Shown here: positions 38,136 through 54,827 of the stretch, piece by piece
Numbering within the stretch: the stretch's first letter is position 1
Layout: each line of letters begins with the position of its first letter
Made by a program: the position numbers and the translations under genes
DNA from: Candidatus Poribacteria bacterium
GTDB lineage: Bacteria; Poribacteria; WGA-4E; PCPOR2b
Assembly: GCA_965208325.1 (NCBI GenBank)
Contig: OZ242326.1
Coordinates: 1,344,001-1,408,000 of the forward strand
Length of the DNA: 64,000 bases
Direction: 5' to 3'
The notes under the pieces: generated by a model
Seen by the model: only the letters and a program-made list of their open reading frames with translations
The model's database searches: none
Told to the model about the DNA's origin: nothing

Positions 38136-40523
38136 ATGAAACGCTTAATTTTACTGTTTCCATTTTTTGTTTCACTGATTATTTGCATAGATGGCCGTTC
38201 CGAATTGCCTCACCAGTTTCTGTTTGGGCATACACATCGCGTGCTTGCGATTGATTTCAGCCCAGATGGGCAGTGGCTTGCCTCCGGCGGCGATGGTGAA
38301 AATAACAAATATGAAATTTACATTTGGGATGCCGCGACAGGCGACCACATCTATACGCTTAACGGGCACACCGGCCAAATAATGGACCTTGCTTTCCGGA
38401 ATAATGGCAATCTTGCATCGGCTTCTGTAGACGGAAGTCTGCGGTTATGGGACGTTGGCGCGCAAGAAGAGATTCGCCAGTTTTATGGACAACAGGACGG
38501 GTTGACATCAGTAGCTTTTTGCTCTGAGGGAAAATGGCTGGCTGCGGGTTCGATTGATAAGGTGCTCAGATTATGGGAAGTTGATACTGGCCGGCTAATT
38601 TCGACTTTAGAAGGACATGGCGCTACCATCTGGGCCGTAGCATTCAGTCCCGATGGCGAAAGGATAGCATCCGCGTCAGAAGACCGAACTGTTCGTCTTT
38701 GGAATGCTCCGGACAGCGATGGAAACCTGATAAATCAAACACCGACCAATATCTTTACCGGACATACAAACCGCGTTTGGTCTCTGGCATTTCACCCTAA
38801 TAAAAATCTGGTTGCTTCAGGGTCATGGGACCACACAGTGCGCGTTTGGGATGCTAATGCAAGCAGCGAGGAAGCTGTCTTTCAGTCCCCCTTCGCAATG
38901 TACAATCGCGAAGTACTTTCGCTTGGCTTTAGTCCGGAAGGGAGATTGCTAGCGGTAGGGTTGCGCCACGTCGAGAACGACAACCCGCTAAAACTGTTGG
39001 ACTTCACATCGGGCAGCACACTCAGATCGTTCGACTCGAAATCGCGGCATGCATTGGACTTTAGTTTCGATGGATTTCGATTGGCCACCGCGGGAGCAGT
39101 TGATGGCACAATAATCATATGGAACTCCAGCCATTTGACCCCTACGCTTAACCATCCCGATGACGGCGATCTCATTGAAACGGCGCAAATTACCCTAAGT
39201 TGGGAGGCAGTCGAAGACTCGGTTTATTACGATGTTGAAATCTCCGACAATCCAGACTTTATGGAGGAGACTAAACTAAAAACGGTTACAGAAAGCCAGT
39301 TTGACTTTGAAGTCAACGGAGAAACACCAGCCTATTGGTGGCGTGTCCGTGCGGGCAGCCTCGGACAGGTCGGCGAATGGTCTGAACCTAGGTCGTTTAG
39401 CATACCGTTTGAACCACCCCTTACCTGCGACGTTTTAATCCTGCCGCCGCGCCGCCAAGTAAATTTGGGGGAGGAGTTTCATATAGAAGTTAAAATTCAT
39501 TCTGCAATAGATCTCGCAGGATTTCAGTTTGATCTTCAATGGACGAATCCCAATGTTCTCAATCTAGTCACGGTTACCGAATTCAGGAATATTTTTGGTG
39601 AATTTGGGCGTGGCAAAGCCGTTGATATTAATCGGGATCTGGGCGTGTTCAGAGATGTTGTTGCAACCAAACTTGGCGCAGGTGGTGTGAGCGGAAGCGG
39701 CACGCTGTTAAAAATGTTGTTCAGTGGCAAAGGCATCGGCACAAGTACCATTCGATTAAATAATCTCAAACTTGTCAACTCGGCAGGGGAACAGATTCAC
39801 TGTAATATTTACAACTCACAGATTGAGGTCGCAGATCCAGCAAGACCGTGGGATGTAAATGGAGACGGAATTGTTGACGTTTTCGATCTCAGCACGGTTG
39901 CGAAATACTTTGGAAAAGAAATTACTGTGGATTTGGGGCTGAATCCTGACGTCAACAGTGACGGAGTTGTCGATCTCAAGGACATAGTTCTTGTTGGAAA
40001 CTACATTGGTGAATCCTATCTGATGGACGGACAAGGAACCTCTGCTGCACCGCATTTCCACCAGACGAAGGAAGTGTACATAGCATCCCGCCATCGACCG
40101 ATTTTATTACCAAAAACACGCAATGCGCTAGAACGTATCTACACAATTTTGCAGCACAGTCCTGATAATTCTTTACCATTTGTTCGTACAAGACAGGTTT
40201 TACGTCATCTGTTGTCATCGGTTTCGCCTAGCCAAGATATATTATTTCAAAACTATCCGAATCCGTTCAATCCGGAAACATGGATTCCTTTCCAGCTTGC
40301 CGCAGACGGGGATGTGACAATCATAATTCACGATGTTAATGGAACACTAGTCCGTAAACTTGCGTTGGGCCATGTCGAAGCTAGTTCGTACATCAGGCGA
40401 ACTGATGCGGCCTATTGGGATGGGAGGGATCGATGGGGTGAACCTGCCGCCAGCGGTGTATATTTCTACACCATCTCAACGCGGTCATTCAAGGCTACTC
40501 GGGCTATGACGATTGTGAAATAA
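38136..40523 (+). CDS. Secreted WD40 + Fn3-like + cohesin + dockerin protein with FlgD-Ig/T9SS-like CTD
   Basis: GH...WD repeats, DLAGFQFDL...SGSGTLL cohesin, DVNGDGIVDVFDL/DVNSDGVVDLKDI dockerin and QNYPNPFNPETWIP...WDGRD...SGVYFY. Confidence 0.88.
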   Translation: MKRLILLFPFFVSLIICIDGRSELPHQFLFGHTHRVLAIDFSPDGQWLASGGDGENNKYEIYIWDAATGDHIYTLNGHTGQIMDLAFRNNGNLASASVDGSLRLWDVGAQEEIRQFYGQQDGLTSVAFCSEGKWLAAGSIDKVLRLWEVDTGRLISTLEGHGATIWAVAFSPDGERIASASEDRTVRLWNAPDSDGNLINQTPTNIFTGHTNRVWSLAFHPNKNLVASGSWDHTVRVWDANASSEEAVFQSPFAMYNREVLSLGFSPEGRLLAVGLRHVENDNPLKLLDFTSGSTLRSFDSKSRHALDFSFDGFRLATAGAVDGTIIIWNSSHLTPTLNHPDDGDLIETAQITLSWEAVEDSVYYDVEISDNPDFMEETKLKTVTESQFDFEVNGETPAYWWRVRAGSLGQVGEWSEPRSFSIPFEPPLTCDVLILPPRRQVNLGEEFHIEVKIHSAIDLAGFQFDLQWTNPNVLNLVTVTEFRNIFGEFGRGKAVDINRDLGVFRDVVATKLGAGGVSGSGTLLKMLFSGKGIGTSTIRLNNLKLVNSAGEQIHCNIYNSQIEVADPARPWDVNGDGIVDVFDLSTVAKYFGKEITVDLGLNPDVNSDGVVDLKDIVLVGNYIGESYLMDGQGTSAAPHFHQTKEVYIASRHRPILLPKTRNALERIYTILQHSPDNSLPFVRTRQVLRHLLSSVSPSQDILFQNYPNPFNPETWIPFQLAADGDVTIIIHDVNGTLVRKLALGHVEASSYIRRTDAAYWDGRDRWGEPAASGVYFYTISTRSFKATRAMTIVK

Positions 40524-40626: not shown

Positions 40627-43600
40627 ATGACGGGACGATGCTCCATGTATTATAGGTTACGGCGACAATCTATCAAATATACCTTATTCGCAGTTTGGCT
40701 TTTGAACTTCTTCGAGTTTTGCCTTTTGCCCGCGCCCGCCCAACAGACCTTCCAATGGCGCAGCTTCACACGAATCCACGATGGACTCAGCAGCAACAAT
40801 GTTCGGTCGATCGCAGAAGACAGCTTCGGACAGATTTGGCTTGCGACGAGCAGCGGTTTGAGTTGTTTCAATGGTTTCTGGCATGTAATTGAAGTTTCAA
40901 TCGGCGATTCGAGCAGTAGTGATATTAATCATATTTTTAGCGATATAGATGGGTTCATCTGGGTGATGACTAGTGGGGGCGTCTTTCAAGGGATGCCGCG
41001 CAATGGCGGGATGGATTGGGTGCATCACTACACTACGGCTGATGGGTTAATCGACAATTCGATTACGGCAGCCGTGCGGCGCCAGAATGGCGAGATTTGG
41101 GTTGGAACGCCTTCTGGCGCCAACTGGTTCGATGGGAACAGGTGGCGTGCTGCGCCAAATGCTGAAGAAGGCAGTGTTAACAAAGGCGTACGTGTCGTTT
41201 ATGAAGATAAAATGGGTAATTTGTGGTTTGGGCTTTCACGGCCAAACCGCCCTTACTTAGTTAGCCGTTTTGACGGCGCCGAGTGGGAGGTTTTCCGTAT
41301 TGAGGACGGATTGCCGAACGGCGATGTAGAAGCGATTACATCCGATCCCTTGAACAACATTTGGGTCGGAACGACTGAGGGGGCAGCGATTTACGACGGT
41401 ACAACTTGGCAGATTATAACTTCGCCGGAACTAATCGGCAACAACGTCCAGTCCATAAAAATTGACGTTGAAGAAACAGTGTGGATTGGCACCAGCGTGG
41501 GAATCAGCTTGTTCAGCCGCGGAAGATGGAGGCATTTGACAAAGGGACACGGGTTGGCGAGCAACAATATCCAGACGCTGTTTGAATCACGGGACGGTGG
41601 AATTTGGGTGGGCACACGAGATAACGGTGTCAGTTTCACCGATAGATTGTGGAGATCGATTACGACAAATGACGGATTGAGTGATAACCAAGTGACATCA
41701 ATGTTGACGGATGGCGGCGGGACAACGTGGGTAGGCACTCGCAACGGATTGGTTCGGTATAGCGGCAGGAAAATCGAATCGGTAGAAGAGCTACTGGGGC
41801 GCGACATACGCGTGCTCGCCGAAGACGCCGAGGAGCGCCTTTGGGTCGGTACAGACTCGGGCATTGTGGTATTTAGTCCAATAATTGCGGATGAGCCTTC
41901 CATATGGCGGCATTTTCGGAGAGCGGATGGGCTAAAAAATGACAGCGTTCAATCTTTGGCCGTTGACGCAGCGGGTGATGTTTGGGTGGGTACAGGAATT
42001 TTGCTTGCCGATGAACCGGGCTTCTTCCCCGGTCTAGATCGATTTGATGGTGACCAATGGCATGCTGAAGAAGACATTTTTCAGGAATTCGGCGAAATAG
42101 TCGCCGTGATGTATTCAGATTCACGAGGGCGTCTGTTTTTTGGCACTGTTGGCGACGCTGCAAGCGATGGCGAGTTGTGGGTTTACCATGGAGGAATTTT
42201 GAACCGGATCAGCCCTAATATTAGCGGATCCATCAATGCTATTATGGAATCTTCCGACGGCAGCATATGGATTGGGACAAGTGATGGCATCCTAATTTTA
42301 GATGGAGAAGCGCTGCAGCAGACGAATCGACTGACGACTGATGATGGATTGGTAGATAACCGTGTACAAGCGCTATTCCGGGATGAACCCGATAGAATGT
42401 GGATTGGCACGGTTGATGGGGTCAGTCTGTTTCAGACCAATCGATTTGCGCGCTCAATCACGGCAAGCGACGGTTTAAACAGCAATAACATCTCCGTCAT
42501 CATCAAACCGGCTGATGGCGTGCTCTGGTTTGGGAGTAAGGATAACGGCGGCGTCAGCCATTTTAATCAGGAGATGATACCGCCAACCACGCGCATAATC
42601 GAAGGTCCCACAAACGGTGAAATTGTTGGAGATACGAGCGTTATCTTTAAGTTTGAAGGAGGAGATCTTAGCACGCCAACCCGAGAACTACGCTATCGAT
42701 ACAAACTTGATGGCAACCTACCAATGCCTACCGATGACGACGGTTTTTCGAATCGTGTTTCGCTGACAGGCCTGGCGGAAGGCGGCCATCGATTCATCGT
42801 TCAAGCGATAGATCGAGAGGAAAACCTGGATCGGCTTGGTGCGCAGGCAGAATTTATTATCGATTCGAAACCGCCAACTGTTCTAATAACCAATCCGAAG
42901 CGCGGCGCGGTCATCAAGGGAGTTTATGGAATCGAGGGTAGCGCGACCGATATGGATTTTCACGATTACGAGATTCAGATTTCGGGTCAATCTGTGTTCA
43001 CCTCAAACCAACCTGTGGACAGAAATACGCTCTATCGGTGGGATACGCAAACCGTACCTGACGGCACATACAATATTCGGCTCACAGCGAGAGATACACC
43101 AAACGGCGACTATGACCGCGAACATCGCGCCGAGGAGATGATATCCGTCGAAGTAGACAACACCTTACCCGGTGCAAAAATTAAGCAGCCGTTACCTGAA
43201 GCTACAGTTACCGGAGAAACCGAGGTTGAAATTGAACTGACCGACCTTCATCTGATGAGCTATCGGTTAGAATTCACACGTGCGGCATCGAAAACTGACA
43301 CGCCGGAAGAGATTACATCGGGTTCAATCTCCGACAGCCCATTATCTATTGTGAAACAGGTACCGTGGAATTCATCAACCGTGTATGGCCATGTAATGCT
43401 TCGGGCAGCAGTTGCAGATGCAGCCGGAAACGAAGGGGTGTCAGAAGTTGTTCCCATTTTCCTCGACAATGAAGGCGCTAAGCCAGTTGTTGAGATTCAT
43501 CGGCCGAATGGAATTAATCCGATCTCGAAGGAAACAGCCGTTACCGCAACAGTCGGCGTTGGCACAGCGCCCGACACCTTTATTGAAAACATAAGCCTCG

Positions 43601-46050
43601 AATACCGACGTGTAGATGACCTCCAGGGTTGGAAGCCGCTGCGCGGCGGCCGTCTAACTTTGAATAACGAAGAGATTACACGATGGGACACTACTGCGCT
43701 CCCTGACGGCGAATATCTGTTACGACTATCCGCAAAGGACAGCAATGGATATTCGTCAAATTTCGAACGGAAGGTGTTTTTGGATAATACGCCGCCGACG
43801 GGCATCATCAGATTCCCGCAAGATGGGGATGTTCGAAAAGCCGAACGTATAGACGTAATTGGTACGGCGACGGATGAAAATTTCGAAGGCTTCGAGCTAG
43901 AATATTCTGTAAATGGCGAAACATGGATACTGATTCCAGGATTGAACACCTCGGTTGAATCGGAACGACTGGGAAGCTGGAACGCGGCAGCCTTACCCGG
44001 CGGCGCTTATCTGCTGCGTCTCACAGTCGTCGACAAGGCGGGTCTAGAAACAACGACAGAGGTAAGCGTGGTACTTGATGACTCGGATGTTATTTCGTTA
44101 ATTACCTCACCTAAGCAAGATGCATACGTCAGCGGTCAAGTAAGAATTACGGGCACAGCTAACGATCCAAATTTTAATCGATTTCATTTGGAATATCGGC
44201 TTGCAGGCGTAAATGGTGCATGGCGGCCAATTCCAGACCTATTCAGTCCCGATAAACCGAAAGAAAACGAACCTCTCGCAGATTGGAATACGCCTCAGCT
44301 CGATGAGAAATACGAAGTCCGATTGACGGCTTTCGACGATTCGGGAAAGAGTGAAACCCACATCGTTCCGGTGCATGTTGATAATCTTAAGCCAAGCGCA
44401 CATATTATCAAGGTTCAATCGCGGCATGCGGAATCTCAAGCTTCGGGGATACTATCGGGTGAAATCGAAATTTTCGGTGAAGCAACCGATGTCCACTTCA
44501 AAGACTTTCGCCTAGATTTTCGCCCTACCGATTACAGCGGCGATTGGCAACCGATTCCCGTGCTGAATTCCACAAGACCTCGACGGAACACGACACTCGC
44601 TATTTGGAGGAATACGCCCCAAATTGACGGCGAGTACGAAATTCGCTTGGAAGTTGAGGATAAATCGGGCAAGTCAAATCCGGCTTTTATGCGCGTTGAA
44701 ATTGACAACCAATCTCCGATTGTTGAAATCTCTCAGCCTAGTCATCGCCAGTTGGTGTTCACCACCATTGAAATTATCGGTACGGCGAGCGATAAATATC
44801 TCGAAGCCTATCAACTAGATTTCAGAGCAGAGGGGACCGCCGAGTGGCAGCAGATAATTCGCGCTACCCATCCCAAGGAAGCAGCGGTATTGGGAGAATG
44901 GGAACCCCCGATGGTAGACGGCGGGTATGAAATCCGCTTGCGCGCTTTCGATTTTGATGGGTCAAGGCAGCCGAGTGAGTCAATCGTACAGGTCCTCGTC
45001 GATAGGTTGCCGCCGCAAGCCGAAATACACTCTCCTACGGCGAATCAACAGCTACCCCGAAAGGTTGACATTCTGGGAACAGCGGACGATCTGAATTTCA
45101 ATGGGTACGTTATCGAATACAGCGGCGGGCAATCACCCGATATCTGGCGGCCGATATCCAAAACGGGGTTTTTGAAGCCGGTGAACGAAGGGCTCCTGGC
45201 AGAATGGAGTGTCCCGGAATTATCGTCTGGCGAGTATTCTTTGCGGTTGCGTGTAGAGGATGGCGCCGGCCATGAGAGCGCCACGTCTGTCAAGGTGTTT
45301 TTCCGCGAGCGCGTGGAGCGCCAAAATAATAGTGTTGTGCAGAGTGAAGATGGAATCGCCAGAATTGTTTTCCCGCCAAACAGCTTGCCAGAATCGACGT
45401 ACGTGACTATAAATCCAGTTCAATCTGCGAATGGGCCGTCCTCAGCCTCCAGCGATGAGATGTTGAACGGCGGCGGATCGCCGAATGTCATTCCGCGCTT
45501 CGATACAATCTACAATTTTGAACCGGCAAATTTGCAACTTCACCGCCTTAAACCTGCAACGATAGAGTTTGCCGTGCAAGAACTTACACCGGCCATGCGA
45601 AATGAAGCATTAACAATTTCTCACTGGGATGGCGCGCGGTGGAAACCCATCGGCGGCACAATCAATGAGCGGCAGGGCACGATTTCGACTGTTGTATCAG
45701 GTTTAGGGCAGTACGCCGTAACAACAGCACCTCCTGTGGAAATTGACGGCGACGTAATCATCGCTGACTTAACCTGCCAACCGCGCCTCTTTTCGCCAAA
45801 CAAAAACGAATCAACATCAATCTCGTTTCGATTAAATCAACCTAGCAATGTCACGGTGCGAATCTACAATGAGGCAGGACGGCTGCGGCGGAATCTAAGA
45901 GAATCAGAACAGCTTTCAACGGGGCGGCATGTCTTTTGGTGGGATGGGCGCGACGACGATATGCGGCGGGTTGTCAGCAACTTTTACATTGTTACGGTTG
46001 AAGCTGAAGGAGCGTTAGCGCGAAAAGCCGTTATCGTACAGAACAATTAG
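40627..46050 (+). CDS. Large secreted protein with two-component-regulator-type propellers, tandem Ig-like repeats and FlgD-Ig/CTD
   Basis: DGLxxNxV...IWVGT repeats, repeated GTAxD...W...DGxYxIRL...DN..P units and C-terminal FSPN...WDGRD. Confidence 0.85.
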   Translation: MTGRCSMYYRLRRQSIKYTLFAVWLLNFFEFCLLPAPAQQTFQWRSFTRIHDGLSSNNVRSIAEDSFGQIWLATSSGLSCFNGFWHVIEVSIGDSSSSDINHIFSDIDGFIWVMTSGGVFQGMPRNGGMDWVHHYTTADGLIDNSITAAVRRQNGEIWVGTPSGANWFDGNRWRAAPNAEEGSVNKGVRVVYEDKMGNLWFGLSRPNRPYLVSRFDGAEWEVFRIEDGLPNGDVEAITSDPLNNIWVGTTEGAAIYDGTTWQIITSPELIGNNVQSIKIDVEETVWIGTSVGISLFSRGRWRHLTKGHGLASNNIQTLFESRDGGIWVGTRDNGVSFTDRLWRSITTNDGLSDNQVTSMLTDGGGTTWVGTRNGLVRYSGRKIESVEELLGRDIRVLAEDAEERLWVGTDSGIVVFSPIIADEPSIWRHFRRADGLKNDSVQSLAVDAAGDVWVGTGILLADEPGFFPGLDRFDGDQWHAEEDIFQEFGEIVAVMYSDSRGRLFFGTVGDAASDGELWVYHGGILNRISPNISGSINAIMESSDGSIWIGTSDGILILDGEALQQTNRLTTDDGLVDNRVQALFRDEPDRMWIGTVDGVSLFQTNRFARSITASDGLNSNNISVIIKPADGVLWFGSKDNGGVSHFNQEMIPPTTRIIEGPTNGEIVGDTSVIFKFEGGDLSTPTRELRYRYKLDGNLPMPTDDDGFSNRVSLTGLAEGGHRFIVQAIDREENLDRLGAQAEFIIDSKPPTVLITNPKRGAVIKGVYGIEGSATDMDFHDYEIQISGQSVFTSNQPVDRNTLYRWDTQTVPDGTYNIRLTARDTPNGDYDREHRAEEMISVEVDNTLPGAKIKQPLPEATVTGETEVEIELTDLHLMSYRLEFTRAASKTDTPEEITSGSISDSPLSIVKQVPWNSSTVYGHVMLRAAVADAAGNEGVSEVVPIFLDNEGAKPVVEIHRPNGINPISKETAVTATVGVGTAPDTFIENISLEYRRVDDLQGWKPLRGGRLTLNNEEITRWDTTALPDGEYLLRLSAKDSNGYSSNFERKVFLDNTPPTGIIRFPQDGDVRKAERIDVIGTATDENFEGFELEYSVNGETWILIPGLNTSVESERLGSWNAAALPGGAYLLRLTVVDKAGLETTTEVSVVLDDSDVISLITSPKQDAYVSGQVRITGTANDPNFNRFHLEYRLAGVNGAWRPIPDLFSPDKPKENEPLADWNTPQLDEKYEVRLTAFDDSGKSETHIVPVHVDNLKPSAHIIKVQSRHAESQASGILSGEIEIFGEATDVHFKDFRLDFRPTDYSGDWQPIPVLNSTRPRRNTTLAIWRNTPQIDGEYEIRLEVEDKSGKSNPAFMRVEIDNQSPIVEISQPSHRQLVFTTIEIIGTASDKYLEAYQLDFRAEGTAEWQQIIRATHPKEAAVLGEWEPPMVDGGYEIRLRAFDFDGSRQPSESIVQVLVDRLPPQAEIHSPTANQQLPRKVDILGTADDLNFNGYVIEYSGGQSPDIWRPISKTGFLKPVNEGLLAEWSVPELSSGEYSLRLRVEDGAGHESATSVKVFFRERVERQNNSVVQSEDGIARIVFPPNSLPESTYVTINPVQSANGPSSASSDEMLNGGGSPNVIPRFDTIYNFEPANLQLHRLKPATIEFAVQELTPAMRNEALTISHWDGARWKPIGGTINERQGTISTVVSGLGQYAVTTAPPVEIDGDVIIADLTCQPRLFSPNKNESTSISFRLNQPSNVTVRIYNEAGRLRRNLRESEQLSTGRHVFWWDGRDDDMRRVVSNFYIVTVEAEGALARKAVIVQNN

Positions 46051-46092
46051 CGAGTGACATCCGTTTCAATGATATGGACTTCCAAAACTGTC

Positions 46093-46121
46093 TTGACAAA
46101 ACCGGGGACACTTCGCATAAT
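46093..46121 (+). promoter_or_regulatory. Putative sigma70 promoter giving a leaderless mRNA
   Basis: TTGACA, 17 bp spacer, CATAAT. The in-frame ATG at 46129 lies at the expected TSS. Confidence 0.55.
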
Positions 46122-46128
46122 ATCCACG

Positions 46129-48210
46129 ATGCGATGCTGTTTTTTTATAATCTTCATGTTCACGTCGGCGAGTGCAATTTACGCCCTCGAAGAAAGAGCG
46201 TCTACCGGCGTGCGTGCCATCGGCATGGGAGAAGCGTTTATCGGTGTCGCCGACGATGAGAACAGTGTTCGCAGAAATCCCGCGGGACTTGTCCGATTGG
46301 ACAGATACGCCCTCGGATTTGAACAGACGCCATCGAAGTTGTTCGGTGTGTTGGAAACCAACTGTCTCAGCGCAGTCTTGCCAGCGTCGGAAAAAATTGC
46401 GTTGGGTATGGATTGGACCCAAGTCGGGATTGTGGATGAAGAACTCGATTCAAGGCGCAGCAGTTTTAACTTCTCCTACAGCTACTATCCATTGTCCCTA
46501 CTGTCGATTGGGGCAAACCTGAAATACCTGACATGGGGCATTACGCTCGATAAGCAATCTGAAGGCAACGCCACCGGATGGGGAACGGACGTTGGCGTAC
46601 TTCTTCAACCAAACCGCAGTTGGACATTTGGATTCTTGGTGCAGGATTTTATCGGTTTTGGAGCTGGACATGGCTTTAGCCGCGACACATGGATGCGCCA
46701 CGACACCGGGGTAAGCGAAAGAGTATTCCCGACAAGGTATAAACTGGGAGCGGCTTATCGGCCCATACCCAATTGGCTCATTGCCGCGGATGTCACGGAC
46801 CGCATCCATGTGGGTGCAGAGTTTCTGCCATACGCCAATTTTGCTATTCGCGCCGGAATCCAAAAAGATTTGGCATCGCTTGAATGGCCGAGTTATTCGT
46901 TGGGTGGACGCGTAACATATCGATGGTTGGATTTCAACGCCGCGTATCTCATTCCCCCAACCCTGCCGCCAACAGTTTATGTTGGTCTTTCGCTCAACAT
47001 AGATTTTCGGCGGTTGCCGGTGCGGATTGAGCAGGTTCGTATAAAAGACCTCTATCCGGTCCATTATAATTACTACGCTTCGCCAAATAGGGAGGTGGAA
47101 ATCATTTTTTTGGAGGAGCCTATCACGCCGCCGGTTTTCACTGACGCCGACCGGGATCGGTACTATCCACTAATGCCGCTAGATTCAATCGGCAGGATCT
47201 GGCTAAAAAATGAGAGTAACAAACCGGTGACTGTCAGGATTGAACTGTTTATTGAACAGTTTGTCGGCCAAGACGGCACGGTAGTTGCATCTGATATTGA
47301 ATTGGAACCCTTAAAGCGGGTTTCTGTGCCAATGCGCCAGCTCGTTTTATCACGCGACGCCCTAGCGTTAACCCAAGCACAGCCTGTCGAAGCGAGAGTC
47401 AAAGTCATCGAGAGCGGTGGAAGTGCATACCGGACTGACACTGTCACTTTAACGTTACACGGCAACCATACAACACGGCTGGATGATGTCGCCAAACTCG
47501 GATCATTCATCTCCTCTGAAGATGCGGCAATTCAAGCCTTTATAAATTCCATTCGTACTGTATTTAACGACAGGATTGCATCAAACACGGTTCCGCGCAA
47601 TTTGTATACGGCTATGCTATTGTTTAACGCCTTGCATGGGGTGTCTTATGCGATTGATCCGAATATACCGGGTGCAAGCGGCACCATAGACGAGATCAAA
47701 TACCCCTTCGAGATGCTCGAACGCCTCAAGGGGCAATTCAGCGGGGATGGCGGAGTTCATGCTTTCGGAGATTGCGACGACAGTACGGCGCTATATTGTT
47801 CGCTGCTAGAATCGGCCGGGATACAGACAGCACTCATCCAGCTTCCTAACCATGTGATGATGGCGTTCGATTTGGGGCAAATTTCTCTCGATTGGGCGGA
47901 AGCGGTAGATTTGCCTGATAGTCACTATCAGCCCATTAACGGGCAGGTTTGGATTCCCATTGAGACAACGCTTATCAAAGACGGATTCATCGCGGCGTGG
48001 CAAACGGCAATTGAAGAAATTCGAGCAAAAGGGGTTATTGACTCGTCTACGGTTGAAGACGCCTGGGCGAAATACGGAGCGAGTTCCTTGCGCGGAGCGG
48101 AAAGACACTTTTCTGTTCCTGAAACTCGAATTAGATCGCGGATAGACGGCGATTTAGCACATCCGTGGTTTCAGGGTTTTTTGGAATTTTTCTCTCAGGC
48201 GCCACCATAG
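46129..48210 (+). CDS. PorV/FadL-like beta-barrel fused to a transglutaminase-like domain
   Basis: Signal peptide, GVRAIGMGEAFIGVADD...NPAGL, amphipathic strands and GDCDD...NHV...WIPIETT. Alternative start 46054. Confidence 0.8.
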   Translation: MRCCFFIIFMFTSASAIYALEERASTGVRAIGMGEAFIGVADDENSVRRNPAGLVRLDRYALGFEQTPSKLFGVLETNCLSAVLPASEKIALGMDWTQVGIVDEELDSRRSSFNFSYSYYPLSLLSIGANLKYLTWGITLDKQSEGNATGWGTDVGVLLQPNRSWTFGFLVQDFIGFGAGHGFSRDTWMRHDTGVSERVFPTRYKLGAAYRPIPNWLIAADVTDRIHVGAEFLPYANFAIRAGIQKDLASLEWPSYSLGGRVTYRWLDFNAAYLIPPTLPPTVYVGLSLNIDFRRLPVRIEQVRIKDLYPVHYNYYASPNREVEIIFLEEPITPPVFTDADRDRYYPLMPLDSIGRIWLKNESNKPVTVRIELFIEQFVGQDGTVVASDIELEPLKRVSVPMRQLVLSRDALALTQAQPVEARVKVIESGGSAYRTDTVTLTLHGNHTTRLDDVAKLGSFISSEDAAIQAFINSIRTVFNDRIASNTVPRNLYTAMLLFNALHGVSYAIDPNIPGASGTIDEIKYPFEMLERLKGQFSGDGGVHAFGDCDDSTALYCSLLESAGIQTALIQLPNHVMMAFDLGQISLDWAEAVDLPDSHYQPINGQVWIPIETTLIKDGFIAAWQTAIEEIRAKGVIDSSTVEDAWAKYGASSLRGAERHFSVPETRIRSRIDGDLAHPWFQGFLEFFSQAPP

Positions 48211-48436
48211 AACACAATCGGGTGCAATTGGTTTGTAGGTTGATTTTTGGCCAAGTTGATGTGCGGCGCCCGGAACGGTTAACACCGTACGAACAGTTTT
48301 TGAATTACCCGCTCTAGCCAACTCACAAAGACTACCATAAATTGTCTATCCCCCAGCAGAACTGCGGGTGATTGTTGATTTCCATGTGGCGTTACGTTAG
48401 CCACACATTTTTTTACACCAAAGGAGGACAACTACC

Positions 48437-49336
48437 ATGAAGCGAAAATACCCTATTCTTCTCACAATTTGCTGCTTGTTCGTGATTGCGGCTAATCCCG
48501 ATTCGCAGGCAGAAGATACGGTAACCGCCACATTCACCTTTGGAAAGATTGAGGTGCTTAAATCCGGTGAACGGGAATGGGCTTTTTTGGAAAAAGGTGC
48601 GGTCTTGAACAACAGTGATCTCGTGCGTATGCCGCCGTACTCGTTAATTCGGCTAAAGGATGCGGACGAGATGCTTTTACCGACGCTTCCGGGCGGGCGT
48701 GAACTGCCTATCAGCGTTTTAATCGAGGAGGGGCGCCTACGTAGGAATGAATTCAAAGGCAAGCGTGTTAGTGCGCCATTTGACAGCCGCCCTACAATTG
48801 ATGTGCTGCCGCTTGGCAACAGACCAAAAGGGGAAAACCGCTTCAAGGCACCTGCCGCAGCTCAACCAACGCCACTAATGCGGGGTGAACTGGAAGCGCT
48901 TCGCCGCGAACTCGACTCGCTTCCTGAAGAATTTGTGCCTTTCATCTCTCGAAGTCTCCTGCCGGATAATCATGCGACGACAGATGCGTATCCCAGCACC
49001 AATCTATCTGGCGCGCTTACCCTTTATCGCGACACGCTCAGAGAAATTGAGGCGAAAACGGAAGCGACTTCAAATCGTTCGCTCTTGTACGCCCAACTGC
49101 TTGGCCGGATTGAGATTGGTGCAGATCTTGTCGTGAACGGCAAGGGGGACCTTTTCGTTGTGTTTGATAGCGGTGTTCCCGTCAATGGGAGTAAACAGAT
49201 TACCGCCAATCATCAGCTCATTCATCATAAATCGGGGACAGATACCGTTTGGATTCCTCTTCAGATTACGCCTCGTCGACATAATTTCACAACCGCATGG
49301 TATACAGCCGGACGGAACCTGGAGGCCGGACTATAG
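48437..49336 (+). CDS. Exported protein with FecR-like N-terminus and degenerate transglutaminase-like C-terminus
   Basis: Signal peptide, GKIEV...W..LEKG.VL...DLVR...SLIRL and a C-terminus that aligns by eye with the upstream protein. AAGGAGG RBS. Confidence 0.7.
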   Translation: MKRKYPILLTICCLFVIAANPDSQAEDTVTATFTFGKIEVLKSGEREWAFLEKGAVLNNSDLVRMPPYSLIRLKDADEMLLPTLPGGRELPISVLIEEGRLRRNEFKGKRVSAPFDSRPTIDVLPLGNRPKGENRFKAPAAAQPTPLMRGELEALRRELDSLPEEFVPFISRSLLPDNHATTDAYPSTNLSGALTLYRDTLREIEAKTEATSNRSLLYAQLLGRIEIGADLVVNGKGDLFVVFDSGVPVNGSKQITANHQLIHHKSGTDTVWIPLQITPRRHNFTTAWYTAGRNLEAGL

Positions 49337-49408: not shown

Positions 49409-51427
49409 TTGTTCCGCGTTTTCCCCGATACGCATCAATTTATGTCCTTCAAATGGGTTCGTGTACAGAAAACATATCTGCTCATCGCGTCCGTGAGCCT
49501 CTTGCCGTTTATGGTAATGGGGCTGTTGCGCGAGTTTGAACTATTTGAGTTTATAGAACTACAAACACTAGATGGACGGTTACGCTTGCCGTCTATACAA
49601 CGACCGCAAATTTCTCGCCAAATTTCGCTCATTACGATTGATGCTGAAAGCGAAGAAATTATTCAGCCGCTCCCGTGGCCGCCTCCCATTTATGCTTCGC
49701 TGCTAAACTACCTTCAAGAAGCGAATCCCAAGGCAATTGGCTTAATCGCTTGGTTCAACCGCGAATGGCCGGGGGATCAACACATCCCCCGTGATAAATT
49801 GTTCGCCATCCGACCTTATACATCAGTAAGCAACACCGGAAATCGACGTGCTTTTCCGGAGGTCACGAATTGGAACCAGTTGCCTCCCAGCTTGCAAAAC
49901 GCGCAAGACTCAAGTTTCAGCGAGTTTGCCTTGAACCGTTCCGATGGTATCTACCGTTCAGCCCAACTCGTCGTCAAACAGGCCGCGGAAGAGGAATACC
50001 GCTACTCTCTCGAAATGTTAATTCTGTGTCAAATCCATGGCGTTCCAGTAACATCAATAAAGGTCAAAGAAGATTTTTGGAGCGGTAAATTTCTACAATT
50101 GTCACGTCCGTCCGGCGCACCAATTCGGATTCCTATTGATTTGCAAGGCAGGCTGTTCCTGAGATTTGCCGGAGACATTTCCGATTTTCAACCCACCTCG
50201 TTCATTAAAGCATTAACCCAGTCTGAATCAGACATGCCGGGATTCCGGCAGAAATTTGAGGGGAAATCAGTCCTAATCGGCATTACAACGGTTAGCGCCC
50301 CGCAGGCTTCGACGCCATTCGGAAAAATGTCTGCACTCGCACTCCGCGCGAACTTGCTTAACGCCCTGCTGAATCAAGATTTTATCCGGCGGTTGAGCGG
50401 CAAGGCAAACCTTCTCTATCTAGCATGTTTTGGTATCGCTGCCGCTATGGCAACCGTTCTCATCAGCAGAACCGGACAGAGCTACAGATTGATGTTACTC
50501 ATCGCATGTGGATTGCTGTTCCTGCATTTCCTTATTGCTTTTGCAATGATTGTGCTATACAACATTTGGATTGAGTTAACTGGAACCAGCCTCGCCCTTA
50601 TCCTGTGCGGTGTAGGGAGCAGCTTTTTCCTAGCGCATTTTCGACTGCGTCAGCTTTTCTCGCAGTTACAGACGACGCGGGAAGAACTTGTCAGAGCCGA
50701 AAAAGAAGCAGTTTTTGGAGTGATGTCCGCGCGGGTACGGCACGAACTGCGAAATGCCCTGAACCTAGTTCGTGCACCTGCAGAGATGATTCGAAACAAT
50801 TTCCAGAAACAAGATCCCTTGAAATTACGGGACCGCCCTGAAGAAATCATCGGCGAAATGGATGGAATCATTGACCGGGTTACAAAACTGGATGAAATGA
50901 TTGAAAATGAACTCAGCTTCTTTCAAAACACACAGTACAATCTTCAACAGCAAGAACTAGGGCCGATTCTGAAATCTGCGTCGGAGATGGTGGAACCGTT
51001 GATTACCGACAAACAAATTAATGTACAGTGGAATTATCCAAGTGACACGCGGAAACTCTCCGTTGACGCTGACAAAATGCGAATCGTCTTCGCGAACCTA
51101 ATAAAAAACGCTTGCCAAGCTATGACGAAGGGCGGCGAATTAGAAATCGCCATTGAAACACCGTACGAATCTTCCTCAAAATCCGTAACCTCCGTCCTAA
51201 TCAGGGATACCGGGGCTGGCATCCCCCCCGATGAACTAGAGCGGATTTTTGAGCCTTTTTACACGACAAAACCGCGTGGATTGGGGCTCGGATTGGTTAA
51301 TGTCAAGAATATTGTCGAGGGACATGGGGGAGAGGTACGTGTGGAAAGCGTAGTCGGCACCGGAACGACATTCTTGATCCAACTACCTGCAGTTCAAGAA
51401 AAGGAGAAAACGTCAATGGGGACATGA
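49409..51427 (+). CDS. CHASE2-domain sensor histidine kinase
   Basis: ELQTLD, ITID, LPWP, DGIYR, GKSVLIG, TPFG and three TM helices. H-box HELRN, N-box NLIKNA, DTGAG, FYTTK and GLGL. Confidence 0.9.
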   Translation: MFRVFPDTHQFMSFKWVRVQKTYLLIASVSLLPFMVMGLLREFELFEFIELQTLDGRLRLPSIQRPQISRQISLITIDAESEEIIQPLPWPPPIYASLLNYLQEANPKAIGLIAWFNREWPGDQHIPRDKLFAIRPYTSVSNTGNRRAFPEVTNWNQLPPSLQNAQDSSFSEFALNRSDGIYRSAQLVVKQAAEEEYRYSLEMLILCQIHGVPVTSIKVKEDFWSGKFLQLSRPSGAPIRIPIDLQGRLFLRFAGDISDFQPTSFIKALTQSESDMPGFRQKFEGKSVLIGITTVSAPQASTPFGKMSALALRANLLNALLNQDFIRRLSGKANLLYLACFGIAAAMATVLISRTGQSYRLMLLIACGLLFLHFLIAFAMIVLYNIWIELTGTSLALILCGVGSSFFLAHFRLRQLFSQLQTTREELVRAEKEAVFGVMSARVRHELRNALNLVRAPAEMIRNNFQKQDPLKLRDRPEEIIGEMDGIIDRVTKLDEMIENELSFFQNTQYNLQQQELGPILKSASEMVEPLITDKQINVQWNYPSDTRKLSVDADKMRIVFANLIKNACQAMTKGGELEIAIETPYESSSKSVTSVLIRDTGAGIPPDELERIFEPFYTTKPRGLGLGLVNVKNIVEGHGGEVRVESVVGTGTTFLIQLPAVQEKEKTSMGT

Positions 51428-51504: not shown

Positions 51505-52950
51505 ATGAATCCATCACGCATTTTAATTGCAGACGACGAACACGCAACCTGCAGCTACATCGACAAACAGATCAAAATGGAATCGTCGATTGATGTTACG
51601 GTGGACTTTGCCTACGACCGGGACGAGGCAATGGCGCTATTGACAGGCAATTCCAACTATAATCTAATTATAGTCGATCTCTGGATGCCGGATGCAGGAG
51701 GCATTTTAGATAGAGAAGCGGGGTTGAAAATCCTTAAACACAGTAAATCTCGGCACCCGGCACCGCAGGCAATCGTCATCACCGCGAACATTTCGTCGAA
51801 GACTGCGCTTGAAGCGAGCGGTTTAGGCATCTACGACTACATCAGCAAGCCAATTGACTACACCCACCTAATTAACATCATCAAGGGGGCGTTAAATCAA
51901 AGCAACAGCGATGCGCTTGATTGGGAGCCTTCCTCTACCGCGCATTTAGAAGAAACCGATGCCCACGAAATCGTCGGCAGCAGTAACGCGATGATTGAGG
52001 TGATGAAAAAGGTTGGGAAAGTTGCGCTTTCGGACGTTGATGTCTTAATCTATGGAGAGAGCGGTACCGGTAAGGAATCCGTAGCGCACGCCATTCATGC
52101 GCTCAGCCCTCGCGCGAAAGGGCCATTCATAGTTATGAACTGCAGCGCCATTCCGGCGGAATTAATCGAAGCGGAATTATTCGGGATAGGGAAACGGGTT
52201 GCAACAGCCGTTGACCAACGTCCGGGGAAATTTCAGCAGGCGGATGGCGGCACAATTTTGCTCGATGAGATTGGTGATTTGGACCTTGCCATGCAACCCA
52301 AGCTGTTGCGCGTACTAGATTCGAAGGAACTTCAGGGAATCGGGATGGATGTTCACCGTGTCAATGTGCGCGTTATCGCCGCTACCAATCGAGATCTCCG
52401 CGCGGCAGTGGAAGCAGGTAGCTTTCGAAGCGATCTCTATTATCGCCTGAAATTCATGATTACTTTACCTCCGCTGCGTGAGCGCGAGGGCGACATTCGG
52501 ATGCTTGCATCGTATTTCCTGAATAAGTTTCTGCGCCTGCCGGAATCGGGGCAAATCCGCGGATTTGACGAGACTGTCTTGTCGGCGTTTGAGCGGTATC
52601 AATGGCCAGGCAATGTCCGTGAATTGGAGAAAGCCGTTCAATATGCGGTTGTCACTTGTACAGGAAATCAGATATTGCAAGAAGATTTACCCCCTGAAAT
52701 CTTCAGTGCGCCAGAAGTAGAAACGCTCGGGTTGCTCCCAGACCGGGACACTACTCCTATACGCAGCTTACTCAACGTCCCAACAATTAAGGATGCCACC
52801 CAAGGCTTCGAGAAAATCTTTCTGGAACACAAACTCAAACAGAATAACTGGAACGTCCGGGCAACTGCCCTACAAATTGGAATCAAGCGCCAGTCATTGC
52901 ACCGCAAAATTAAGGAGCTCGGTCTGAAGCGAAACGAAAATCAGACGTAA
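51505..52950 (+). CDS. NtrC-family response regulator (receiver-AAA+-Fis HTH)
   Basis: DDE, DLWMP, KP, GESGTGKE, LDEIGD, FRSDLYYRL, WPGNVREL and a C-terminal HTH. Confidence 0.95.
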   Translation: MNPSRILIADDEHATCSYIDKQIKMESSIDVTVDFAYDRDEAMALLTGNSNYNLIIVDLWMPDAGGILDREAGLKILKHSKSRHPAPQAIVITANISSKTALEASGLGIYDYISKPIDYTHLINIIKGALNQSNSDALDWEPSSTAHLEETDAHEIVGSSNAMIEVMKKVGKVALSDVDVLIYGESGTGKESVAHAIHALSPRAKGPFIVMNCSAIPAELIEAELFGIGKRVATAVDQRPGKFQQADGGTILLDEIGDLDLAMQPKLLRVLDSKELQGIGMDVHRVNVRVIAATNRDLRAAVEAGSFRSDLYYRLKFMITLPPLREREGDIRMLASYFLNKFLRLPESGQIRGFDETVLSAFERYQWPGNVRELEKAVQYAVVTCTGNQILQEDLPPEIFSAPEVETLGLLPDRDTTPIRSLLNVPTIKDATQGFEKIFLEHKLKQNNWNVRATALQIGIKRQSLHRKIKELGLKRNENQT

Positions 52951-53618: not shown

Positions 53619-54827
53619 ATGAATCAATCATCTCAAATCTCCGCTGAAGCGTCCGTTAAAAATTGGTCACCACAATTTGAATCTGTGCCCGCAGATTTGG
53701 GTATACAACCGGAATCTTTTGCACAAGCATCAAATATAAGTCCGGAGCAAGACGCCGTTGCAACGGAGGATGCGGATGGGGCCATTAGACCACCCTTGGA
53801 TTCCGACTGCGAGAAAGACGCGCGCGGCGGCGTTCTGCACACGTATCTTTCCCAGATGGGAGATTACGCGCGTTTGACGCAAGACGAAGAATTAGGTATC
53901 TTTTTCAAGATAGAGAAGTATCGCAAGCGCATCAATGAATGCTATGAAGAATTGATGACATTTCCGCTCGAGATAGATGCGGAAGATTTGCCAAGCCCGC
54001 GCTCGTTGAAAAAATTGATTGCCGCTAAATCTTTTGTTCCGCCCACACAAGAGTTCCTTTTGGAACTTGTGGGACATATCCAATTTCTGCAAGCGGAAAT
54101 CCACACTGCCAAAAACCGTGTTGTTGAGGCTAACCTGAGATTGGCGGTCTGTATTGCCAAGAAATACCAAGAGCGCGGACTAGATTTGCCTGATCTCATT
54201 CAGGAGGCAAATATCGGGTTGATTAACGCTGTCGATCACTTTGATTGGCGGCGCGGTGTGAAGTTTAGCGCGTGCGCTTCTTGGTGGATTCAGCAAGCCA
54301 TCGGGCGCAGCATTGCAAATCATGGGCGGACGATTCGCATCCCGTCGCACCTACTCAGCGACATTAGTAAAGTGAATCGTGCGAAAGCACGTTTTTTTCA
54401 AAACACCAACCGTGAACCCAATCCAAAAGAAATCTCTGAAGCAACCGGGCTTTCAGCCAAAAAGATAACGGAATTGAATCGGATTTCGGCGGATTCCATG
54501 TCCCTGGAAGACTGCATTAGTCCAGACACGGGCGGTGAAGTTGAAGTGCTAGTTCCATGCGAACAAGCATCGGATCCCCTAACGGGCGTGATTACGAAAA
54601 GCCTAATTGAAGAGGTTAATCTGGCAATCGGCGCATTGCCGCCCCGTGAGAAACAGATTGTCTTTTTGAGATACGGTCTAGAAAACAGCGAAGAACACAG
54701 TTTACAGGAAATAGGGATGATGTTGAACCTGTCACGAGAACGGGTTCGGCAATTGGAAGCCAGGGCGTTGAGTCGGCTGCGCCATCCCTCTCGGAGCGAT
54801 AGACTGAACGATTTCCTCTTTTCGTAA
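53619..54827 (+). CDS. Alternative sigma70 factor, RpoD/RpoS-like (group 2-like)
   Basis: Region 1.2, region 2 ANLRL..IAKKY..DLIQE..WWI..RTIRIP and region 4.2 SRERVRQLE. No region 1.1. Confidence 0.92.
   Translation: MNQSSQISAEASVKNWSPQFESVPADLGIQPESFAQASNISPEQDAVATEDADGAIRPPLDSDCEKDARGGVLHTYLSQMGDYARLTQDEELGIFFKIEKYRKRINECYEELMTFPLEIDAEDLPSPRSLKKLIAAKSFVPPTQEFLLELVGHIQFLQAEIHTAKNRVVEANLRLAVCIAKKYQERGLDLPDLIQEANIGLINAVDHFDWRRGVKFSACASWWIQQAIGRSIANHGRTIRIPSHLLSDISKVNRAKARFFQNTNREPNPKEISEATGLSAKKITELNRISADSMSLEDCISPDTGGEVEVLVPCEQASDPLTGVITKSLIEEVNLAIGALPPREKQIVFLRYGLENSEEHSLQEIGMMLNLSRERVRQLEARALSRLRHPSRSDRLNDFLFS

Follow-up and report, generated by a model that had tools for sequence, protein, structure and literature searches.

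The window analysed here is a stretch of 64,000 nucleotides from the 4.71-Mb genome of a Candidatus Poribacteria bacterium (GCA_965208325.1, contig OZ242326.1, positions 1,344,001-1,408,000). It holds a row of six genes on one strand (plus, as are all window coordinates given below): a giant surface protein, here called BIG, genes A and B, a CHASE2 histidine kinase, a sigma-54 response regulator and a sigma-70 factor. Our subject is the A/B pair; the segment 47470-49336 comprises the last 246 codons of the 718-codon open reading frame (ORF) of A and all of B. Gene A (ORF 46054-48210) encodes a PorV-like barrel, an Ig-like domain, a transglutaminase-type domain with a Cys-His-Glu triad and a helical tail. 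Gene B (48437-49336, 299 residues) encodes a signal peptide, a small beta-sandwich, a disordered linker and a transglutaminase-type domain that lacks the triad. A and B, we found, form a genuine and conserved pair of enzyme and pseudoenzyme. A presumably active domain with an intact triad and a dead relative of it have long been kept together across families and classes of the phylum, under purifying selection.

Gene A is single-copy in its own genome and has 115 homologues, the named ones all from Candidatus Poribacteria. Its start is probably the Met26 codon at 46129 and not 46054, because a sigma-70-like sequence lies just 5' of Met26 and a typical signal peptide (MRCCFFIIFMFTSASAIYA) begins at that residue. 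This sequence (TTGACA, 17 bases, CATAAT; 11 of 12 positions) is the best sigma-70-like match of the region; it lies in the segment 46093-46131, inside the 5' end of the ORF, with 7 bases between it and the Met26 codon. The closest homologue cluster has a length of 684 residues. The first domain is a PorV/FadL-type beta-barrel (residues 50-318, 46201-47007). It scored 60 bits (E 2.8e-16) against the NCBIfam model NF033709 (PorV_fam), under the curated cut-off of 90, and 47.9 bits in the search of its own genome. An A profile run against the PDB sequences retrieved the solved PorV structure 6h3i_F (E 1.2e-10), with no match for the enzyme arm. On these scores A is related to PorV; with a score under the cut-off, we did not assign it as a member of PorV or PorQ.

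For the last 400 residues of A, Pfam and NCBIfam gave nothing over cut-off. The Transglut_core family (PF01841) did not match A and reached one of 36 orthologues at E 0.21, no Peptidase_C93/LapG match was listed in the Pfam scan of A, and residues 570-657 gave 21 bits (E 3.8e-5) against the NCBIfam model 'anti-phage ProA', whose cut-off is 1500. Since the profile families gave no match over cut-off, we folded A and B using their own alignments. The predicted structure of A 319-718 (pLDDT 78, pTM 0.78) opens with an Ig-like beta-sandwich (residues 319-473, model residues 1-155; 47008-47472), which VIA-align matched to a GH2 domain (8u01_A, Z 9.3, rmsd 3.0, 100 aligned) and to domain 3 of HAP2 (Z 8.5). 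The enzyme domain follows (residues 478-678, model residues 160-360; 47485-48087). As modelled, it has a transglutaminase/papain-type fold, with the nucleophile helix packed on an antiparallel sheet. VIA-align matched it to TG3 (8oxv_A, Z 8.4, rmsd 4.2, 169 aligned) and the bacterial putative protease 3kd4_B (Z 8.1, rmsd 3.1, 128 aligned), and further to TG2 (7.9), TglA (7.8), LapG (4fgo_A, 7.2, rmsd 3.9, 140 of 181 aligned), 3isr (7.2) and PNGase (7.1). Foldseek also returned TG3, at E 4.2e-4.

The catalytic triad of this domain is intact. Cys574 (codon TGC, 47773-47775) sits in a GDCDD motif and opens a helix (model 256-269), His600 (codon CAT, 47851-47853) opens a strand (model 282-293), and Glu637 (codon GAG, 47962-47964) stands at the end of the WIPIE strand, after model strand 313-318. 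In the model, the placement of these three residues is the papain/transglutaminase arrangement. We surveyed the triad in 151 distinct A and 154 distinct B sequences. G572, D573, C574, D575, D576, H600, W633, P635, E637 and T639 were invariant in all 151 A sequences. Among more remote relatives of the A domain (best 146), a Cys-His-Glu/Asp triad was present in 143 of the 144 with all three columns, and the exception (P0361) carries Ser-His-Glu.

Gene B, single-copy as well, has a ribosome-binding site (AAAGGAGG) just 5' of its ATG and 118 homologues, all of which look like Poribacteria orthologues. It belongs to no Pfam, NCBIfam or PADLOC family; Pfam searches of 52 orthologues gave scattered chance matches only, and a B profile run against the PDB sequences gave only snake lectins at chance level (E 0.02). 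The predicted structure (pLDDT 77, pTM 0.72), in which a signal helix comes first, gave no PDB match in Foldseek at E<=0.001. Several matches of the B profile in other genomes (G050, G015, G047 and others) were flagged as having one TAG/TAA/TGA inside although the B ORFs at those loci are intact; the flags most likely arise where the start of the profile runs upstream over a preceding stop.

With VIA-align, the C-terminal domain of B (residues 185-299, 48989-49333) aligned to 3kd4_B (Z 6.4), Rad4 (2qsh_A, 6.0), XPC (8ebs_H, 6.0), TglA (5.5), PNGase (5.4) and TG3 (5.0). Transglutaminase folds made up 12 of the 18 best rows, among them factor XIII, a TGase, TG2, PeiP, 3isr and LapG, and three more were arylamine N-acetyltransferases; the rows of both kinds all cover the C-terminal part of B, residues 133-299. 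A and B thus share their best bacterial structural match, 3kd4_B.

All three catalytic positions had been claimed to be lost in B, and this is what we found: the equivalents in the window are T211, D238 and Q276. The loss is conserved among orthologues, none of the 154 sequences having Cys or His at the aligned columns. At the Cys-equivalent column 211, 89 of the 154 have a gap; at the His-equivalent column 238 the residues are Q (74), E (40), K (22), D (10), N (4), R (3) and T (1); and at the Glu-equivalent column 276 they are Q (93), D (22), R (15), E (8), L (7), H (6) and W (2), with one gap. Seven B sequences have a Cys nearby (four at column 212, three at column 215), and all seven lack the His. 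Three deep-branching orthologues from other Poribacteria families (L051-L053) are likewise without Cys and His, and retain the pair of Asp residues found after the Cys of A. Because the triad is absent, we class B 185-299, judged by its sequence, as a dead member, or pseudoenzyme, of the transglutaminase-like superfamily.

The C-termini of A and B are homologous according to profile comparison. Pairwise BLASTP aligned only the last 35 residues (A 624-658 with B 263-297, 34% identity, pairwise E 2e-4). Comparison of a profile from 58 A sequences with one from 52 B sequences by hhalign gave a probability of 93.5% and E 2.3e-7 over 106 columns (A 514-657, B 187-296). The original prediction had aligned two stretches of A and B by eye; both were located, and the register of that alignment agrees with hhalign. 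In a local repeat the score was 57.0, compared with a mean of 16.9 (sd 3.2, maximum 29.7) for 60 column shuffles of the B alignment and 15.4 for the reversed alignment. Searched over six frames of the genome, the B profile found B (E 4.8e-125) and A residues 575-655 (E 0.0027), and nothing else. In the other direction, the A profile matched the B ORF in another genome (G018, E 7.5e-6), and a B hidden Markov model (HMM) matched every one of the 151 A orthologues and, of 146 remote relatives of the A domain, all but one. The two domains also have the same order of secondary structure, a helix and then strands, and the catalytic and ex-catalytic positions correspond. That the resemblance arose by chance or convergence, B ending in an unrelated fold, could be argued from the short BLASTP alignment and the empty Foldseek search, and is scarcely credible against the shuffle controls, the reciprocal profile matches (296 of 297 family members with the B HMM), the common order of secondary structure and the prevalence of transglutaminase folds, with three arylamine N-acetyltransferases, among the top B rows.

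We considered a recent tandem duplication as the source of the B domain. With the B HMM the best A sequence reached 31.3 bits and a remote relative 41.9 bits. Because remote relatives outscore A, a recent tandem duplication is unsupported and a simple local duplication is not shown to be the origin of the dead domain.

Selection on both genes was estimated from dN/dS among the window and its three closest relatives. The ratio was 0.10-0.14 in the live domain of A (478-678) and 0.31-0.39 in the dead domain of B (185-299); the N-terminal domain of B (27-108) gave 0.11-0.23 and its linker (109-148) 0.21-0.39. The dead domain is under purifying selection, about threefold looser than that on the live domain of A, and the N-terminal domain of B is as constrained as A.

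This N-terminal part (residues 27-107, 48515-48757; pLDDT ~90) consists of a beta-sandwich (27-91) and a helix (92-106), and is the part predicted to dock to A. Its best match in VIA-align was 5ix9 (Z 8.8, rmsd 2.8, 72 of 76 aligned, 12% identity), the next for the domain only having Z 4.2. We take 5ix9 to be the N-terminal anchoring domain of a Marinomonas ice-binding adhesin. According to the model, B residues 25-100 share the fold of this LapA-type retention/anchoring domain. In the available text of bioRxiv 10.1101/198937, 5ix9 is the template chosen for the retention module of LapA, and this module is cleaved off by the periplasmic protease LapG. The linker of B (residues 109-145) is disordered in the model (pLDDT 33-38) and contains the motif IDVLPLGN (residues 121-128, 48797-48820). 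Its D122, L124 and P125 do not vary among 52 sequences, and deep-branching orthologues retain it in the form VDALPAG or VDVLPAG.

B had also been described as fused to a FecR-like module, a claim that the profile searches did not confirm. The FecR family PF04773 did not match B, nor its 52 orthologues at E<=1, nor anything in its own genome at E<=10, and among 81 Poribacteria genomes it was found in one, at an unrelated place. FecR and PupR chains were absent from the 50 VIA-align rows shown for B, which were mostly filled by matches to the C-terminal domain. A language-model search with B 24-110 gave a weak lead at a score of 0.84, under the 0.9 mark: two clusters, of whose members 19% and 37% carry FecR. 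The N-terminal domain of B is a small beta-sandwich whose kinship with FecR is unproven.

We modelled a complex of A 319-718 and B 27-299 from their own, unpaired alignments in three runs with three controls. The runs gave ipSAE values of 0.83, 0.79 and 0.84, compared with 0.00 for the best control, and shared at least 66% of their contacts, with a partner pLDDT of at least 74. Of 157 solved complexes 116 attain the ipSAE pass mark, as do 2 of 215 mismatched pairs; with own alignments these rates are only approximate. A and B are thus predicted to bind. The contacts of least error join B 33-38, within the first strand (TFTFGKI), to A 626-630 (QPING, model 308-312) and A 663-666. On the A side, the predicted pairing partner is an edge strand (residues 626-631, QPINGQ; 47929-47946), the strand before the WIPIE strand. 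On the B side, the modelled interface comprises residues 32-38, 49-53, 68-70, 79, 83, 103 and 106-107. Neither the linker of B nor A C574, H600 and E637 were among the confident contacts.

The interface coincides with conserved positions. On the B side these are the most conserved residues of the protein, F33 and G36 being invariant and T34, F35, F50, K53 and L70 nearly so. Within the A family, S611, N629 and G630 are kept in 36 of 36 sequences, Q631 in 34 and T666 in 33. In 142 rows of remote relatives, proteins that have no B, the same positions vary (N in 31, G in 90, S in 36, T in 10). This lineage-specific conservation would back the contact as supporting evidence; it is not proof, because the A family is conserved overall (mean column identity 69%).

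The original prediction envisaged a heterodimer of the live and the dead copy. Binding as such is upheld by the model, which passes its controls; the contact, unexpectedly, is made by the extra N-terminal sandwich of B and not by the dead copy. A dimer of the two copies was rejected as the form of the complex, as the model did not set the two homologous domains together.

We then turned to the distribution of the pair in Poribacteria. The B profile led to 41 loci, and at every one A is followed directly by B and B by the CHASE2 kinase. The response regulator and the sigma factor are each present at 39 of these loci, the other two ending at a contig edge. BIG lies upstream of A at 36 of the 41 (E<=1e-5), the contig being cut at one of the other five, and at all three deep-branching loci. 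Independent searches of 121 Poribacteria genomes for A, B and CHASE2 found A and B in 33 genomes, the same ones for both and invariably as neighbours. CHASE2 was in those 33, next to B, and in two more that lack A and B, so that the three genes agree in 119 of 121. By family, all three genes were present in 18 of 18 and 9 of 9 genomes in two families and in none of 82 in a third. The genomes are related and the counts therefore not independent, and we make no statistical claim; the whole cluster looks like a trait of certain lineages, acquired or discarded as a unit.

A second enzyme-module gene (705-777 residues) is found in some Poribacteria, in a different neighbourhood: G063:C21 (L054 5670-7787), G045:C26 (L055 5768-8101) and G080:C39. 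These genes match the A profile at E 1e-30 and 4e-25. No B-like neighbour was found at L054 or L055, which indicates that B goes with this A specifically. Fused B-A or B-kinase forms were not found among longer proteins, which is weak evidence.

Beyond the phylum the enzyme arm of A has many relatives. A profile of A 319-718 retrieved 1,991 clusters at E<=0.001, 1,654 of them at E<=1e-10, from 1.84 billion representatives: the Ig-like domain and GDCDD enzyme module represent a large family without a Pfam or NCBIfam model of its own. We scanned the Pfam architecture of 40 of the best 150 remote relatives. N-terminal to the module were Reg_prop propellers in 12 of the 40 (11 also with Y_Y_Y); a PorV, PorP, UPF0164 or OMP barrel occurred in five, a membrane-anchored nSTAND NTPase in three (one also with TIR), an NHL or six-bladed propeller in three and ankyrin in one. 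TPR repeats were found in 31, usually after the module, and the architecture barrel-enzyme-TPR was present among the relatives scanned. PF01841 matched six of the 40 at E<1e-3, two of them over its 23-bit cut-off (P0250, 24.5; P0315, 24.2), and DUF553 matched two. In a hydrophobicity scan of 24 relatives, 17 had either a signal-like segment at the N-terminus alone or a membrane segment separating NTPase and module; the other seven had neither. From these segment patterns, the enzyme module is probably extracytoplasmic throughout the family.

The neighbours of the pair point to a surface protein on one side and to a two-component system on the other. BIG (40627-46050, 1807 residues) contains propeller repeats (Reg_prop, E 5.7e-50), Y_Y_Y (1.8e-10) and Ig-like domains (FlgD_ig, 2.7e-8), and ends in a type IX C-terminal sorting domain (TIGR04183, 23.6 bits against a cut-off of 23). 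Its gene stops 3 bases ahead of the A ORF. Because the module of A is elsewhere fused to Reg_prop/Y_Y_Y propellers, and in Poribacteria a propeller gene adjoins A, we tie A to BIG. Downstream of B, the kinase gene (49409-51427, 672 residues) encodes the sole CHASE2 protein of its genome, the search giving one match. Its CHASE2 domain (PF05226, residues 36-344, E 2e-27, 96.8 bits against a cut-off of 26.3) sits between membrane segments, and the kinase core is present (HATPase_c, 1.1e-25; HisKA weak, E 0.0011), as in CHASE2 sensor kinases. The sigma-54-dependent response regulator (51505-52950; Sigma54_activat, E 2.2e-57; Response_reg, 1.2e-16) and the sigma-70 family factor (53619-54827; Sigma70 regions 2, 3 and 4) complete the conserved row. 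By eye, no sigma-54 promoter (GG-N10-GC) was seen in the 226-base spacer between A and B.

We propose, at a probability of about one half, that B is a non-catalytic adaptor or co-sensor in a relay from the outer membrane to CHASE2. PorV-type barrels presumably end on the periplasmic side, which would place the arm of A after the last strand there. The arm, Ig-like domain and enzyme domain together, would then most likely hang from the outer-membrane barrel into the periplasm. B would be exported to the periplasm, where its N-terminal sandwich may add a strand to the sheet edge of the live domain at A 626-631. Such strand pairing would tether B to the outer-membrane protein, while the conserved linker motif and the dead domain of B would remain available to engage the CHASE2 domain in the periplasm. 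Through the kinase, the sigma-54 response regulator could in this way be informed of the state of the barrel or of its neighbour BIG, secreted by the type IX route. The B gene always immediately precedes that of the sole CHASE2 protein, a placement that points to a protein partner for this sensor.

Several points weigh against the adaptor or co-sensor proposal. The fold matches of the dead domain are middling (Z 4-6.4) and persuade through their consistency, not singly, and by the B HMM this domain is no nearer to A than to a remote relative. Its share in the modelled interface is also minimal (B 257-260 and 293), and the A-B complex itself is a prediction, built from unpaired own alignments. 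The periplasmic placement of the arm would follow from the usual topology of PorV-type barrels; the link between B and CHASE2 we infer from gene order and co-inheritance, and we likewise infer the direction of signalling in the relay. Finally, the two genomes with CHASE2 but without A and B (G008 and G013) keep a related lone CHASE2 kinase (L057 3856-5688, minus strand, E 7.9e-79 to the window kinase), near which no A- or B-like gene was found. This indicates that the kinase can work without A and B.

An alternative that we consider possible, if unlikely, is that B is the substrate of A: A would hold the sandwich of B and cut its linker near IDVLPLGN, and the freed dead domain or N-terminal domain would switch the kinase. 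The parallel is with LapG and LapA. LapG is, in the available text of PMC4359373, a periplasmic calcium-dependent protease of transglutaminase fold with calcium near its active site, and in that of bioRxiv 10.1101/198937 the retention module of LapA leads into a flexible stretch that holds the LapG site, at residues 80-150. The enzyme domain of A matches LapG, and the Cys of A lies in the invariant acidic GDCDD motif. We assume that the calcium ligands of LapG flank its Cys in the way that the acidic residues of GDCDD do in A. The best match of the B sandwich is the template of the LapA retention module, and B has the layout of LapA: sandwich, helix and disordered stretch, which in B carries the invariant D122, L124 and P125. 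The complex model also sets the catalytic domain of A on the sandwich and helix of B. Against cleavage, the linker and the active-site residues are absent from the confident contacts. The alignment consensus of B has no conserved [T/A/P]AA[G/V] dialanine site for LapG, and the PAAAQ of the window lies in non-conserved columns. Nor did the Pfam scan list a Peptidase_C93/LapG match for A, and a sandwich match over 72 residues indicates a fold, not a function. Cleavage would moreover leave unexplained why the released part is a dead copy of an enzyme.

Set beside the Lap system (LapG/LapD/LapA) of Pseudomonas fluorescens and Legionella, the pair is alike in having a transglutaminase-fold Cys-His-acid enzyme, presumed periplasmic in A, a sandwich followed by a flexible linker, and an enzyme tied to an inner-membrane signalling protein, a tie that for A is proposed. 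It differs in that A is fused to an outer-membrane barrel, whereas LapG is free in the periplasm, and that the third triad residue is Glu in A and Asp in LapG. B has 299 residues and a signal peptide, and is not a giant RTX adhesin. The partner is a CHASE2 kinase instead of a c-di-GMP receptor, and the dead enzyme copy is absent from Lap. A fuller version of the cleavage idea, which we hold to be improbable, is an outer-membrane-anchored LapG principle rewired to a two-component system: the barrel of A would report on BIG, the arm would grip B and cut its linker, and the freed fragment would be the CHASE2 ligand. If this were true, CHASE2 would gain a defined protein signal and a proteolytic switch, and an uncharacterised family of extracytoplasmic enzymes with ~2,000 sequence clusters would gain its first function.

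It is also conceivable, though rather improbable, that A and B never touch, B being an accessory of the CHASE2 kinase and A a shuttle or processing enzyme for BIG, with the operon serving co-regulation. The PorV-like barrel of A fits this idea, as does the sorting domain in which BIG ends 3 bases before the A ORF, in a genome with 17 PorV-family matches and ~50 sorting-domain matches. The fusion of the enzyme module to Reg_prop/Y_Y_Y propellers in 12 of the 40 relatives would fit too, and a secreted accessory protein beside a CHASE2 kinase has precedent in the available text of PMC5192318. Against it stand a complex model far above its controls, lineage-specific conservation that coincides with the modelled interface, the finding that A and B are never apart in 121 genomes, and the paralogues of the module at L054 and L055, which have no B-like neighbour.

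The suggestion that the dead copy is an inhibitor fared worse, and we regard it as quite unlikely. B would be a decoy whose dead domain mimics the enzyme or its substrate-binding face and silences A until a signal arrives. Pseudoenzymes are known to regulate active paralogues, A and B carry homologous domains on genes that are always neighbours, and the two proteins are predicted to bind. However, the confident contacts exclude the three catalytic residues of A, and from the dead domain only B 257-260 and 293 take part. There is free variation at the ex-catalytic positions of B, with seven residue types at each of columns 238 and 276, so that no substrate-like cleft appears to be preserved, and the rate of evolution of the dead domain is about threefold that of the live domain of A.

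The pair resembles dead transglutaminase folds and the Lap, NsrA, LysM-FecR and FecA-FecR systems, and belongs to none of them. Our literature searches, judged by title or abstract, gave no description of the A/B pair. Rad4/XPC and erythrocyte protein 4.2 are, as we understand them, catalytically inactive transglutaminase folds. The C-terminal domain of B aligns to them (2qsh_A, Z 6.0; 8ebs_H, Z 6.0; 7tvz_E, Z 4.1) and is like them a fold without the triad, presumably used for binding. They differ from B in being eukaryotic and cytoplasmic or membrane-skeletal, and in being neither beside an active paralogue nor predicted to bind one.

By role, the closest parallels concern CHASE2. In the available text of PMC5192318, CHASE2 is a common extracytoplasmic sensor domain with inputs that are largely unknown. 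One protein-dependent case is NsrA, an outer-membrane beta-barrel that acts upstream of the CHASE2 adenylate cyclases CyaD1, CyaD2 and CyaK in Sinorhizobium meliloti (PMC13001267, available text). The barrel gene A similarly lies two genes before the only CHASE2 protein, a likeness drawn from the description of NsrA. In the NsrA system the output is cAMP and not a histidine kinase with a sigma-54 regulator, and the available text describes no enzyme arm or dead-paralogue adaptor. The barrel-enzyme A, its dead-paralogue partner B and the kinase, with a few point mutants, would allow a direct test of CHASE2 activation by a protein partner.

Bridging proteins are known from two further systems. 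In the Burkholderia 'BiofilmReg' operon (COG4254), the gene neighbour of a CHASE2 histidine kinase codes for a secreted LysM-FecR protein (PMC5192318, available text), and B is, like this protein, small, exported and encoded directly upstream of a CHASE2 kinase. FecA-FecR signalling likewise has a periplasmic protein that bridges an outer-membrane barrel and an inner-membrane signaller, the role proposed for B. B differs from both in having neither PF04773 nor LysM and in its second domain, a dead transglutaminase fold; FecR, unlike B, is moreover a membrane anti-sigma factor.

PorV and PorQ (solved PorV, 6h3i) resemble A over its first 318 residues, and A follows a gene whose product has a type IX sorting domain. 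They differ from A, which carries a 400-residue arm of Ig-like and enzyme domains and whose barrel reaches 60 bits against the cut-off of 90. The same genome has at least eight other PorV-family matches over that cut-off, among the 17 counted above. In the literature, type IX secretion in Poribacteria was found only as passing mentions. The ~50 sorting-domain matches are ORFs that end in this domain, and two further ORFs of ~2,100 residues gave partial PorU-sortase matches, neither over cut-off. The gene preceding BIG (38136-40523) encodes 795 residues, by eye WD40 repeats and a C-terminal type IX sorting domain; the tail of the PorU model matches the sorting-domain part of this gene at 40245-40499 (E 5.4e-7).

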